Source: a virus
Taxonomy: Duplodnaviria; Caudoviricetes
IMG/VR virus record: IMGVR_UViG_3300044614_001923
Strand: one strand, 5' to 3'
Length of the DNA stretch: 64,000 nucleotides
Part shown: positions 28,906 to 38,346 of the stretch, piece after piece
Layout of the letters: each line of letters opens with the position of its first letter
Numbering within the stretch: position 1 is the stretch's first letter
Program-made: the position numbers and the translations under genes
The notes under the pieces: generated by a model
Databases searched by the model: none
Told to the model about the DNA's origin: nothing
What the model saw: only the letters and a program-made list of their open reading frames with translations

Positions 28906-28908
28906 AAG

Positions 28909-28980
28909 TAGGACTGCGGGGAATTGAACCCCGTTCACACCGTTATAAGCAGTGGGCCTTAACCAATAGGCGACAGTCCC
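28909..28980 (-). tRNA. trnI: tRNA-Ile(TAT)
   Basis: CACTG-CTTATAA-CGGTG. Confidence 0.88.
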
Positions 28981-29023: not shown

Positions 29024-29227
29024 TTAAGAACCTTCTTCGTGATCGGTGTGAATACGTATTATATCATCGTCTAAACCAGCACCTTTGAATATTTGTGACA
29101 CTTCTTTATATGGCATCATAACTGCATTTCCATATTCACTAGTAATCATAAAAGATTCTCCGTTTTCTACTCTTTCCATTAGATTATCAAAATCTGATTG
29201 AAATTGTTCTACAGTAAATGATTTCAT
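29024..29227 (-). CDS. Phd/YefM antitoxin-like protein
   Basis: FTVEQFQSDFDNLMERVENGESFMIT pattern. Confidence 0.55.
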   Translation of the reverse strand: MKSFTVEQFQSDFDNLMERVENGESFMITSEYGNAVMMPYKEVSQIFKGAGLDDDIIRIHTDHEEGS

Positions 29228-31943: not shown

Positions 31944-32189
31944 TTAACGAACCTCAAAGTCTAGTTTACGGACTTTACGTTGTCTTCTTGCCTCTTGCCA
32001 GGCAATATCTTGAGAAGTAAGAACATTTCTTTGTTCTTTCTGTGTAGAGTTTACCATAATTACTCTACTTAAGTCAAGAGCTGAAACACTATCACCCTTT
32101 ACAGTCATCATATTGTGACAACCACAAACCTGAATTTTATTCGTACTGGTCAACTCTTTGTTACAATCTTTACATCTTACTATAATCAT
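31944..32189 (-). CDS. Zn-ribbon hypothetical protein
   Basis: CKDC...CGC...RKVRKLDFEVR. Confidence 0.75.
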   Translation of the reverse strand: MIIVRCKDCNKELTSTNKIQVCGCHNMMTVKGDSVSALDLSRVIMVNSTQKEQRNVLTSQDIAWQEARRQRKVRKLDFEVR

Positions 32190-32204: not shown

Positions 32205-32639
32205 TCATTGTGTAAACGATCTTAACATCCAAATAAATTTACCGTGCGCTTCATTTAAATCATCAACAAGGTTTATAGTTCCTTTTGATTTATTTGACTC
32301 TGCTTCATCTGATACTTGAGTCAAAAGTTCTACAATTTTCTGATGACCTTCTAATAGATCACGAATCATTCCCATAGTATCTAGCCCACTATTTGTCTCA
32401 GTAATATGAGAAACTTCAGTAATTCTAGAAAGAGTTGGAACTGGTTTTACATTCAAAAATCTCATATGTTCAGTGATTCGATCTACCTCATCAAACATTG
32501 CTTCATATTGTTCGCCAAACAAATCATGAAATTGTTTGAAATCTTCTCCAACTACATTCCAATGATATACCCAAGTCTTTTGAAAAAGTACAAAAAGACT
32601 TGCTTGAGTGTCGGAAAGTAATTTATATAGTGTTTCCAT
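32205..32639 (-). CDS. dps: Dps / ferritin-like DNA protection protein
   Basis: YHWNVVG..F..FHDLF, DRITEH, HGKFIWMLRS. Confidence 0.9.
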   Translation of the reverse strand: METLYKLLSDTQASLFVLFQKTWVYHWNVVGEDFKQFHDLFGEQYEAMFDEVDRITEHMRFLNVKPVPTLSRITEVSHITETNSGLDTMGMIRDLLEGHQKIVELLTQVSDEAESNKSKGTINLVDDLNEAHGKFIWMLRSFTQ

Positions 32640-32666
32640 TATACTTTTTTCAAGTATTTATACAAG

Positions 32667-32738
32667 TGGGCGATACTGGATTCGAACCAGTGACCATCTC
32701 CGTGTAAAGGAGGCACTCTACCGCTGAGTTAATCGCCC
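32667..32738 (-). tRNA. trnV: tRNA-Val(TAC)
   Basis: CCTCC-TTTACAC-GGAGA. Confidence 0.95.
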
Positions 32739-32739
32739 A

Positions 32740-32814
32740 TGCCCTCTGTCTAGGAATCGAACCCAGTTTCCATGTGTGTTATCCACCCGTCCTTACCAAT
32801 AGACTACCAGAGGG
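32740..32814 (-). ncRNA. tRNA-like element with non-canonical anticodon arm
   Basis: Acceptor CCCTCTG/CAGAGGG, D and T arms present; no regular 5-bp/7-nt anticodon arm. Confidence 0.6.
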
Positions 32815-32998
32815 AAAGGTGATGAGTGGCCATCACCAGCAGAAGACACTTTCTGCGAGAGAAAACACCAAACCTTATTTTTCCTGTTCTCAGGAAGGCA
32901 CCCAGATCAATGGGGTGGGAGACCTTGCAAGGGTTTATACCTCCAAAGTTTGTCCAGCATTTTCAATTTGAAAGAACCAGACATTTCTAGTCCTTCCA
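32815..32998 (-). ncRNA. ~185-nt structured RNA, manA-motif-like
   Basis: Non-coding gap after tRNA-Asn with several stems (CCTG..CAGG, GCAGAA..TTCTGC, GGTGATG..CATCACC). Name recalled from memory. Confidence 0.45.
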
Positions 32999-33400: not shown

Positions 33401-33510
33401 ATAGTCCTCTTGATTTGTGCTTCTATGAGAGGCATAAGAGGAGTAGGACTTACATGAAGTTTGGACCTTCACTGCCAATGATAATATTGTAACCTATGAT
33501 TGATCCCTTG

Positions 33511-33999
33511 TCAAGCCCCTTCACCAAATATAAATTCTTTCCATTCATGAACTCTACTTTTTTCAAGATCTAACATTACGCGACTAAAAGGTGCTTTTGG
33601 TTCACACTTTAGTTTCATATTAGTATCTTTTAAAGACTTATTGCCCTTTTTAACATTACATGTCATACAACATGCAACTAAGTTATCCCAGGTATCCTTT
33701 CCGCCTTTTGATCTTGGAATCACATGGTCTATTGTAAGATCATTTTTTGTTCCACAATACTGACATTCATGATCATCTCTTTTATATATCAAGGCACGAG
33801 ATGGATAAGTTTCCTTTTCGTTCATGAAAGGAAGTTTTACATAATTTACTAATTTAATTATTCTTTTTGAAATAATTTTTGCCTTTTCTTTAAAACAAAG
33901 AACTACGGCTCTTTTCCAATTTGTAAAGTGAAGAGGTTCATATGAACTATTGAGAACCAATATTGTTGAATAAGGTTCTATGTATTCCATACTAAACAC
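33511..33999 (-). CDS. HNH endonuclease (McrA-like)
   Basis: LVLNSSYEPL, CQYCG, LTIDHVIPRSKGG..TWDNLVACC..CN..KG. Confidence 0.9.
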   Translation of the reverse strand: MFSMEYIEPYSTILVLNSSYEPLHFTNWKRAVVLCFKEKAKIISKRIIKLVNYVKLPFMNEKETYPSRALIYKRDDHECQYCGTKNDLTIDHVIPRSKGGKDTWDNLVACCMTCNVKKGNKSLKDTNMKLKCEPKAPFSRVMLDLEKSRVHEWKEFIFGEGA

Positions 34000-34030
34000 C
34001 TATACATTTGTTATTTAGATTTTAATTATA

Positions 34031-34102
34031 CACCCTGAGGAGGATTTGAACCACCGTCTTATTCGTTCGTAGCGAAGCACTCTTCCACTGAGTTATCAGG
34101 GC
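34031..34102 (-). tRNA. trnR: tRNA-Arg(ACG)
   Basis: TTCG-CTACGAA-CGAA. Confidence 0.93.
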
Positions 34103-34107
34103 GTAGG

Positions 34108-34179: not shown

Positions 34180-34183
34180 ATAG

Positions 34184-34257
34184 TATCCATGAGAGGACTC
34201 GAACCTCCAACAAATAAATCCTTAGTCTATTGCCTCTTCCAATTGGGCTACATGGAT
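34184..34257 (-). tRNA. trnL: tRNA with AAG anticodon (Leu), short variable arm
   Basis: ATAGA-CTAAGGA-TTTAT; variable region TTGTT. Confidence 0.75.
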
Positions 34258-34331: not shown

Positions 34332-34403
34332 AGCCCTCAATTGGATTTGAACCAACGACCTACTCATTACTAGTGAGTTGCTCTACCACTGAGCTATAAG
34401 GGC
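34332..34403 (-). tRNA. trnT: tRNA-Thr(AGT)
   Basis: ACTCA-CTAGTAA-TGAGT. Confidence 0.9.
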
Positions 34404-35628: not shown

Positions 35629-35721
35629 TAGGAGTGGAGGGACTCGAACCCCCAACCGCACGGTAATCTGCCGTATACGGAAGGTATAAGCTTCCCGCTC
35701 TGCCAATTGAGCTACACTCCC
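35629..35721 (-). tRNA. tRNA with TAT anticodon and ~25-nt extra arm (Ile-like, identity uncertain)
   Basis: GGAAG-CTTATAC-CTTCC followed by TACGG-CAGATTA-CCGTG arm; 93 nt. Confidence 0.75.
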
Positions 35722-37697: not shown

Positions 37698-37916
37698 TCA
37701 CCGAACATCAATCTCCTGATCTCCAAAATCATCTTCCAACTCCAAACACATATAATTCAGATCCTCTTCTTCTTCTAGATCAATCCATTCTGAAAATTCT
37801 TCAGAAATTGCAATTGCATTAAGATGGTCTTCTGTATTTTCAGATTCTGACAACTGGTGAATACGGTCGATTGACCAATCACGGACTTGAATCGCCGCAT
37901 TAATCGTTGTTTCCAT
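37698..37916 (-). CDS. Acidic hypothetical protein
   Basis: METTINAAIQVRDWSIDRIH...; start set at the internal Met. Confidence 0.65.
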   Translation of the reverse strand: METTINAAIQVRDWSIDRIHQLSESENTEDHLNAIAISEEFSEWIDLEEEEDLNYMCLELEDDFGDQEIDVR

Positions 37917-38346
37917 AATAATCTTTTCGGAAGTACCTTGAGAGGATGTTGCTATTGTAGAACGCTGGGGTTCCATCGTCAAGGGATTCTGTGAGGACAT
38001 TATTTGTGAAGAGTTGCTTTGTCTCTTCAAAGTTTGTTTTGCCCTTTGTTTTATGTAATGAGAGGATAGTTCTACTAAAACTTTCCCTACCATATTTTTC
38101 AACGTCTTCTTTAAGCTCTGGACAAGACCCATAGTATTTTTTCCAATCAGATTCAGATTTTACTTTTCTTTTCTTTCCCTTAGGCGTTCTAAAAGAGAAG
38201 AAGTACTTCCTCCCAATATATCTCCTTCCATTGGAATTATTGGTAATTAAATAAACAAAACCAAAATATTCTCCAATATTGGCGCTGCTAAAAGGATTTC
38301 CATTATAGATCCATGGATTCTCATAGTCAATATCTATACTCATCAA
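37900..38346 (-). CDS. GIY-YIG-like endonuclease
   Basis: GFVYLITN...YIGRK...ESDWKKYYGS. Confidence 0.8.
   Translation of the reverse strand: MMSIDIDYENPWIYNGNPFSSANIGEYFGFVYLITNNSNGRRYIGRKYFFSFRTPKGKKRKVKSESDWKKYYGSCPELKEDVEKYGRESFSRTILSLHKTKGKTNFEETKQLFTNNVLTESLDDGTPAFYNSNILSRYFRKDYYGNND

Follow-up and report, generated by a model that had tools for sequence, protein, structure and literature searches.

We found that a 72-nt element in the tRNA cluster of a T4-like cyanomyovirus is a member of a conserved, previously undescribed family of non-decoding cyanophage tRNA mimics. The element is a tRNA-shaped gene on the minus strand at 32742-32813 of the window (the whole stretch of DNA that was analyzed, 64,000 nucleotides), with RNA position 1 at 32813 and the discriminator, a G, at 32742. 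With a canonical tRNA (RF00005), it shares the acceptor stem, the D arm, the T arm, the 72-nt length, and the genomic position. A canonical tRNA, however, has a 5-bp anticodon stem and a 7-nt loop, where the mimic has a 5-nt loop with a covarying closing pair. We are highly confident that this family exists with the structure described here.

The window comes from a phage whose nearest DNA relatives are Kyanoviridae, e.g., S-SRM01 and DSL-LC03, at ~77 to 80% identity, and it holds 25 tRNA-type genes on the minus strand, together with wcaG and PhotoRC-II RNAs. ARAGORN placed the window copy of the mimic at 32741-32813 and labeled it tRNA-Val(AAC). The Rfam tRNA model RF00005 reported it at 32742-32813 with 30.1 bits (gathering score, 29), compared to 51 to 76 bits for the other tRNAs of the window. 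Further copies scored 29.6 bits (DSL-LC03) and 28.8 bits (S-RIM32) against the same threshold of 29, while those of S-PM2, S-CREM1, S-SZBM1, and S-RIM8 gave no RF00005 report at an E value of ≤0.1, and the majority of mimic copies lie below the Rfam tRNA threshold. Using a covariance model built for the mimic family, termed R1, we obtained 96.9 bits for the window mimic and no more than 33.1 bits for the best true tRNA of the window. In each of five carrier genomes, R1 found exactly one site (95 to 101 bits), with true tRNAs at 34 bits or less. None of the window's own tRNAs is close to the mimic, and a recent paralogous origin from one of them was rejected. Rfam 15 contains no family for the cyanophage tRNA mimic, and we did not find the family described in the literature on tRNA-like RNAs of cyanophages, on tRNA mimics or decoys in phages, or on tRNA pseudogenes or RNA-seq of S-PM2.

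An earlier, sequence-only reading of this DNA had proposed a tRNA-like shape without a decodable anticodon arm and suggested running a tRNA finder on it. The ARAGORN call and the Rfam alignment, with its good acceptor, D, and T arms, confirmed that shape. The same reading held that the middle could not form a 5-bp stem. In the canonical register, the stem would be GGUGG/ACAUG with only three of five standard pairs, so this description was accurate. Pair counts were based on an alignment of 60 distinct mimic sequences (alignment A2), and the parts of the window copy are as follows.

32807-32813, minus strand: 5′ strand of the acceptor stem, CCUCUGG, positions 1 to 7 (from pair covariation).
32789-32804, minus strand: D arm, GUCU-AUUGGUAA-GGAC, positions 10 to 25, with G18 G19, U11-A24, and U13.G22 (from alignment A2).
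32772-32788, minus strand: replacement arm, positions 26 to 42, with stem pairs 26-42, 27-40, 28-38, 29-37, and 30-36 and with A39 (32775) and nucleotide 41 unpaired (from covariation).
32779-32783, minus strand: pentaloop, GAUAA in the window, with a family consensus of GAYAA and GACAA in most copies (from alignment A2).
32767-32771, minus strand: connector GGAAA, positions 43 to 47, the counterpart of the variable region (from alignment A2).
32750-32766, minus strand: T arm, CUGGG-UUCGAUU-CCUAG, positions 48 to 64 (99.7% of cells paired).
32743-32749, minus strand: 3′ strand of the acceptor stem, ACAGAGG, positions 65 to 71 (from the Rfam alignment and pair counts).

The conserved acceptor, CCUCUGG/ACAGAGG, consists of six Watson-Crick pairs plus G7.A66. 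Pair 1-72 (alignment columns 1 and 71) covaries as CG/UA and pair 2-71 (alignment columns 2 and 70) as CG/AU/UA. Changes are absent or nearly so in pairs 3 to 6, and acceptor positions 3 to 7 are invariant. The G7.A66 pair (alignment column 65 for the A) is G.A in 60 of 60 copies and becomes U-A in three additional contigs. The sequence-only reading had described the acceptor as CCCTCTG/CAGAGGG with an extra G.A pair. Both the stem and the G.A pair stood, but the outermost C:G did not belong to the stem. Across 101 distinct copies, pairing between -1 and 73 was observed in 38 against 43.8 expected by chance, which ruled out an 8-bp acceptor stem and implies that the outer C:G pair is incidental and specific to the window copy. 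The discriminator varies across loci (A in 83, U in 39, C in 9, and G in 3).

The D arm, GUCU/AUUGGUAA/GGAC, was found as previously described. The D stem is 100% paired, with U11-A24 and U13.G22 in all 60 copies. The invariance of this arm in alignment A2 is in part forced by the search pattern. A scan anchored on the 3′ half of the mimic recovered nearly identical membership, with hardly any copy having another D arm, which shows that this arm is truly near-invariant. The TTCGATT T loop noted earlier is likewise present, within CUGGG/UUCGAUU/CCUAG, and T-stem pair 50-62 covaries among the 60 copies (GC in 28, AU in 25, and GU in 7). The tRNA features kept by the mimic also include U8, A14, the elbow G18 G19 with the T loop, and the order of the cloverleaf arms.

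The replacement arm does not follow the canonical register. For the shifted stem, 97.7% of cells are paired in the 60 copies, and all five pairs show changes on both sides, as opposed to 39.7% of cells for the canonical register (27-31 with 39-43), which was excluded on these numbers. Pair 26-42 is mostly A-U and G-U, and once G-C. Pair 27-40 occurs as G-C, C-G, and A-U, pair 28-38 as G-C and C-G, pair 29-37 as C-G, U-A, and G-C, and pair 30-36 as G-C, A-U, and C-G. Since this last, closing pair covaries, the loop length is fixed at 5 nt. Over the whole structure, 94.5% of cells are paired in the 60 copies, compared to 24 to 49% when the partner columns were slid, and the covariation score of the mimic structure was reached in 0 of 500 shuffles.

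The unpaired parts of the arm are conserved as well. The bulged A39 is invariant among the 60 copies. The pentaloop has an invariant A34 and A35 and a G31 and A32 that are kept in ≥90% of copies, with the third base alone varying between C and U. The connector has an invariant G44 and A45 and an A47 kept in ≥90% of copies, whereas column 46 varies freely. Arm and connector together span 22 nt, as in a canonical tRNA whose variable region has 4 nt.

The loop is of the P22 boxB type, i.e., G-A-N-A-A with a Watson-Crick closing pair and a variable third base. The GACAA pentaloop of P22 boxB, identical in sequence to the loop of most mimic copies, has a GNRA tetraloop fold with the third base (C) looped out and contacted by the N peptide (PDB 1A4T; PMC12550061). 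Judging from this identity to a solved loop, the GAYAA loop of the mimic may take a GNRA-like fold with its third base out. Variation at the third base only fits a boxB-type GNRA fold in which that base is extruded. The settings of the two loops differ, as P22 boxB is a cis element in nascent mRNA for transcription antitermination, whereas the mimic loop sits on a tRNA body.

The mimic thus lacks both the 5-bp anticodon stem and the 7-nt loop, with its U33 and purine 37, that such a stem would close. ARAGORN labeled the copies Leu-CAA (65), His-AUG (28), or Val-AAC (2), gave a two-base anticodon to 12, and gave none to 26; no anticodon or isotype is constant across orthologues. With these inconsistent labels and with most copies below the Rfam threshold, the mimic appears unable to decode. 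Although the window copy is formally called a tRNA by both ARAGORN and Rfam, and although a published table gives one S-PM2 tRNA as a pseudogene (PMC3037559) that may be the mimic locus, we regard it as hardly tenable that the element is a tRNA pseudogene in decay or a real tRNA that decodes despite an aberrant loop. Compensatory changes maintain the non-canonical stem, including pair 30-36, the anticodon labels of orthologues disagree, and conservation is at least that of most adjacent true tRNAs across several genera. The sequence-only reading had named random degeneration across relatives as one outcome that would speak against a tRNA mimic. We found a conserved structure instead, and conservation, covariation, and a phage-only distribution all indicate a tRNA mimic kept by selection rather than a decaying gene.

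As that reading had proposed, we searched for conservation of the element, and it is conserved in both cultured and uncultured cyanophages. BLAST returned copies at 82 to 97% identity in S-RIM32, DSL-LC03, S-PM2, S-CREM1, S-SZBM1, and one S-RIM8 isolate, and the element occurs without annotation in seven cultured cyanomyoviruses from several genera. The DNA around the mimic in carrier phages is only ~77% identical to the window, and the block of conservation begins and ends exactly at the tRNA-like borders. This contrast in identity and the covarying helices place the element well outside what chance would give. At least 118 IMG/VR contigs carry the element by an exact-pattern scan; these copies were retrieved with exact 22- to 23-nt patterns, to which part of their high identity is due. 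At the same loci, mean pairwise identity was 0.87 to 0.95 for the mimic (somewhat inflated by exact-pattern retrieval), 0.80 to 0.89 for the adjoining true tRNA, and 0.38 to 0.54 for the 40 nt upstream.

Among 185,579 species genomes, we obtained three exact matches, all on MAG or very short contigs. These are a 27-kb contig of an Acidimicrobiaceae MAG (L135), a 515-bp contig of a Vulcanococcus MAG (L136), and a 413-bp contig of a Clostridium assembly (L137), and all three look like mis-binned or contaminating cyanophage DNA. In 80 further genomes from the family to which the Vulcanococcus (picocyanobacterial) MAG belongs, an R1 search gave no match. A host origin was rejected on these two results, and the mimic family is phage-only, as far as searched.

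Among phages, presence is patchy. The five isolates with DNA closest to the window are without the mimic, and among the 16 S-RIM8 isolates listed, only KX349286 carries it, with the flanks of the other 15 being 99.8 to 100% identical. In KX349286, tRNA-Thr and tRNA-Ala are separated by a 325-nt block that contains the mimic (L006 461-788; compared with L139, S-RIM8 A.HR1). In the 15 S-RIM8 records without this block, tRNA-Thr and tRNA-Ala abut. This patchiness and the S-RIM8 polymorphism imply that the mimic is an accessory gene subject to gain and loss. The gene is dispensable, given its absence from 15 of 16 S-RIM8 isolates and from the five isolates closest to the window.

The mimic is always on the tRNA strand, a few nucleotides from true tRNA genes and in a single copy per genome. 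A true tRNA begins 2 to 7 nt downstream of position 72 in ~80 of 134 loci, and one ends 0 to 4 nt upstream of the mimic in ~20 of 134. In the window, the surroundings comprise the following.

32666-32738, minus strand: tRNA-Val(UAC), 2 to 3 nt downstream of the mimic (ARAGORN; Rfam, 67.3 bits).
32814-32998, minus strand: structured 185-nt spacer from tRNA-Asn to the mimic, context outside the mimic itself (fold z = -4.41).
33486-33514, minus strand: sigma-70-like promoter match TTGACA-17-TACAAT ahead of tRNA-Gly (11 of 12 positions, a match to the consensus only).

The sequence-only reading had placed the element between a manA-like RNA and tRNA-Val. The tRNA-Val neighbor was correct and lies directly downstream. 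The manA identity of the spacer was discarded, as the 185 nt have no Rfam manA match even at an E value of ≤10; a true manA does occupy the analogous place in S-CREM1 (96.6 bits). The spacer is modular. Two small hairpins make up its last 43 nt and recur at 90 to 98% identity in at least nine other contigs. In three of these contigs this module directly precedes the mimic, and one shows a compensatory change (GCAG/CUGC to GCGG/CCGC). The match at 33486-33514 is the nearest strong one upstream and a possible candidate for the start of the mimic-bearing transcript.

This arrangement bears on another suggestion of the sequence-only reading, namely that the element is a processing signal for the adjacent RNA. 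As pure processing punctuation, it would be a handle for RNase P or RNase Z to release its neighbors, e.g., the 185-nt spacer RNA. The mimic does directly follow a structured spacer RNA in the window, and phage tRNA clusters do hold other small RNAs between tRNAs (abiF, manA, and wcaG). We nevertheless find this explanation quite improbable. Such a signal would be largely redundant given the spacing of real tRNAs on either side of the mimic, with many loci having true tRNAs on both sides within 0 to 7 nt that already give cleavage sites. It also leaves the invariant loop and core of the mimic unexplained, and a punctuation role would require no invariant pentaloop, no bulged A, no fixed core, and no conservation equal to or above that of adjacent real tRNAs.

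Several other genes lie in or around these clusters. An abiF RNA motif (RF03085, 52 to 56 bits) lies within the tRNA clusters of S-CREM1 and S-SZBM1 (L004 72-108 and L005 499-535), and manA and wcaG RNAs likewise separate tRNAs in S-CREM1. The tRNA clusters of cyanophages are carriers of several small RNAs. The window cluster contains the wobble-A tRNAs Leu(AAG), Thr(AGU), and Arg(ACG) at 34183-34257, 34332-34403, and 34030-34103, respectively, on the minus strand. In bacteria, Arg(ACG) is the only usual substrate known for A-to-I editing, so the Leu(AAG) and Thr(AGU) genes are unusual. A gene called as tRNA-Ile(UAU) at 35629-35721 (minus strand; Rfam, 55.7 bits) has 93 nt and so exceeds a normal class I tRNA by ~20 nt, and there is a second Ile(UAU) call at 28908-28980. 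Also on the minus strand are a Phd/YefM-like antitoxin fragment at 29024-29227 (below the Pfam cutoff; phrog_375) and a SegE-type GIY-YIG homing endonuclease at 37900-38343.

We looked for a protein partner in the same genomes. No linked partner protein emerged from 134 mimic neighborhoods. The commonest downstream neighbors of the mimic are a ferritin/Dps-like protein (32205-32639, minus strand) and a protein matching phrog_8074 (31944-32189); neither has an evident link to tRNA, so both were rejected as linked partners and read as synteny only. In a tblastn profile of S-PM2 open reading frames, none was present in five of five mimic-bearing and zero of four mimic-less complete genomes, a sample of five carriers and four non-carriers that is small and suggestive only. 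Two S-PM2 frames were found in five of five carriers and one of four non-carriers; they are tiny and also occur in S-SRM01. A phage CCA-adding enzyme (PF01743) is absent from five carrier genomes. Since no phage protein that co-occurs with the mimic emerged from the neighborhoods or the profile, a host factor or a core phage protein is the likelier partner, ahead of an accessory phage protein dedicated to the mimic.

On balance, we lean toward the view that the element is a functional, processed, non-decoding tRNA mimic from a phage-only family, accessory in the tRNA clusters of T4-like cyanophages (Kyanoviridae), which binds a factor that reads the tRNA body. RNase P, RNase Z, and the CCA-adding enzyme recognize the acceptor/T-arm half and the elbow. 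The mimic would be co-transcribed with the tRNAs and then excised by host RNase P and 3′ processing enzymes, as is expected from its keeping that half and the elbow. In the window, the RNase P cut at the 5′ end of tRNA-Val(UAC) would define the 3′ trailer of the mimic, and CCA would then probably be added. The product could build up as a stable RNA of 72 to 75 nt and act in trans by filling a binding site made for a tRNA body, with the GNRA-like GAYAA loop and the bulged A possibly providing a second, specific contact.

Other roles raised by the sequence-only reading fit the structure less well. Anticodon nucleases read a particular 7-nt anticodon loop, and a decoy for them fits poorly with a mimic that has a conserved GAYAA loop of 5 nt in its place. 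T-box elements and RelA need the anticodon to pair with a specifier or an A-site codon, so a role in T-box or RelA sensing fits a mimic without an anticodon just as poorly. A synthetase decoy would be conceivable only for enzymes that read the tRNA body; the D stem is of the Glu/Gln type, but the discriminator varies.

The Glu/Gln-type D stem is a lead to a possible set of targets. The mimic could imitate the body of tRNA-Glu or tRNA-Gln, with non-discriminating GluRS, GatCAB, and glutamyl-tRNA reductase (GluTR) as candidate targets. GluTR recognizes the tRNA core, and such a mimic would tune the Glu-tRNA hub that feeds translation and cyanobacterial tetrapyrrole (chlorophyll and bilin) synthesis. 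Apart from the mimics, the only genes of the phage loci with a GUCU/GGAC D stem are those for tRNA-Glu (in 6 of 9 distinct sequences) and tRNA-Gln (in 3 of 12). The nearest comparison is with phage tRNA-Gln(UUG), from which the mimic differs at 1 of 17 nt in the T arm and at two positions in the D arm. E. coli GluRS relies chiefly on U11-A24, on U13-G22:A46, and on a missing nucleotide 47 as major determinants, while N73 can be dispensed with (PMC9976931). The U11-A24 and U13.G22 of the mimic match these, and the dispensability of N73 for Glu identity fits its variable discriminator. The mimic has the U11-A24, U13.G22, and short variable region of an augmented D helix. With a connector of 5 nt in the shifted register, however, its correspondence to A46 and nucleotide 47 is uncertain.

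Despite these similarities, we consider Glu/Gln body mimicry unlikely. The mimic has C1-G72 and C2-G71, as opposed to the Glu determinants G1-C72 and U2-A71 (PMC9976931), and without an anticodon loop it lacks the strong anticodon determinants (UUC/UUG). The column equivalent to A46 is the least conserved in the connector. R1 also ranks the Ile (33.1 bits) and His (29.9 bits) tRNAs of the window above Glu (28.8 bits) and Gln (25.7 bits).

The near-tRNA dimensions of the mimic would also suit the ribosome. Its body might enter the E, P, or A site, with the GNRA-like loop docking at the place of the anticodon and modulating translation of the host or the phage. GNRA loops are typical RNA-RNA docking modules, the overall and arm lengths are close to those of a tRNA (arm plus connector, 22 nt), and the elbow is intact in both G18 G19 and the T loop. 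Without codon pairing or aminoacylation, the mimic should nevertheless have a low affinity for the A or P site, and the mimic gene is dispensable in S-RIM8. We judge a ribosome-directed role to be quite improbable.

Very unlikely, in our estimate, is an aminoacylated carrier for a non-ribosomal transferase, charged by a synthetase that ignores the anticodon, like Fem-type tRNA-Gly. Acceptor positions 3 to 7 are invariant and the T arm is intact, as would suit a charged RNA, but the discriminator varies (see above), and there is free covariation at the two pairs read by most synthetases, 1-72 and 2-71. The mimic has no G3.U70 (Ala), no long variable arm (Ser and Leu), and no G-1:C73 (His), and no transferase gene co-occurs with it.

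If the mimic does bind a factor that reads the tRNA body, as we favor, its effect on that factor could be an inhibitory one. It might be a phage weapon or regulator that plugs a site shaped for a tRNA body, either as a non-chargeable competitor at the Glu-tRNA hub or as a sponge for host defense enzymes that modify the acceptor end, with the pentaloop adding affinity. We regard this extension as speculative and doubtful. If true, it would make the mimic a new class of phage-encoded RNA inhibitor on a tRNA scaffold.

Known non-decoding RNAs offer partial parallels. T4 RNAC and RNAD are stable RNAs from the T4 tRNA region with an unknown biological role (PMC3014915). Like the mimic, RNAC and RNAD (species 1 and 2) are the products of small RNA genes beside true tRNAs in a T4-type phage, and rnaC has a tRNA-type T arm, as does the mimic. 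They are, however, 139 and 119 nt long and have no GAYAA arm, compared to 72 nt for the mimic. Homology to rnaC or rnaD was rejected, as the R1 matches listed comprise a single 19-nt hairpin, the T arm of rnaC (14.7 bits), and none in rnaD. YrlA (RF02553) and the tRNA-like domain of tmRNA are also non-decoding and imitate part of a tRNA, as the mimic does. In YrlA, which is present in some phages too, a Ro-binding stem takes the place of the anticodon stem and contains the RNA ends. The ends of the mimic RNA form a normal acceptor stem instead, and its D arm is complete. No Rfam match to YrlA or tmRNA was found at an E value of ≤10 in the window region, and a fragment of 12.5 bits was found on the S-PM2 copy.

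These findings have a practical consequence for annotation. Phage tRNA clusters are usually taken as aids to codon usage, and tRNA finders assign mimics arbitrary isotypes (Val, Leu, and His), which inflates and distorts phage tRNA repertoires. The mimic is available in the cultured phages S-PM2, S-RIM32, S-CREM1, S-SZBM1, and DSL-LC03, and S-RIM8 KX349286 versus the other S-RIM8 isolates is a natural near-isogenic pair for presence and absence. Marine and freshwater cyanophages keep a non-decoding, tRNA-shaped RNA under purifying selection at least as strong as that on most adjacent real tRNAs, and this points to an unstudied interaction between a phage RNA and the host tRNA machinery.
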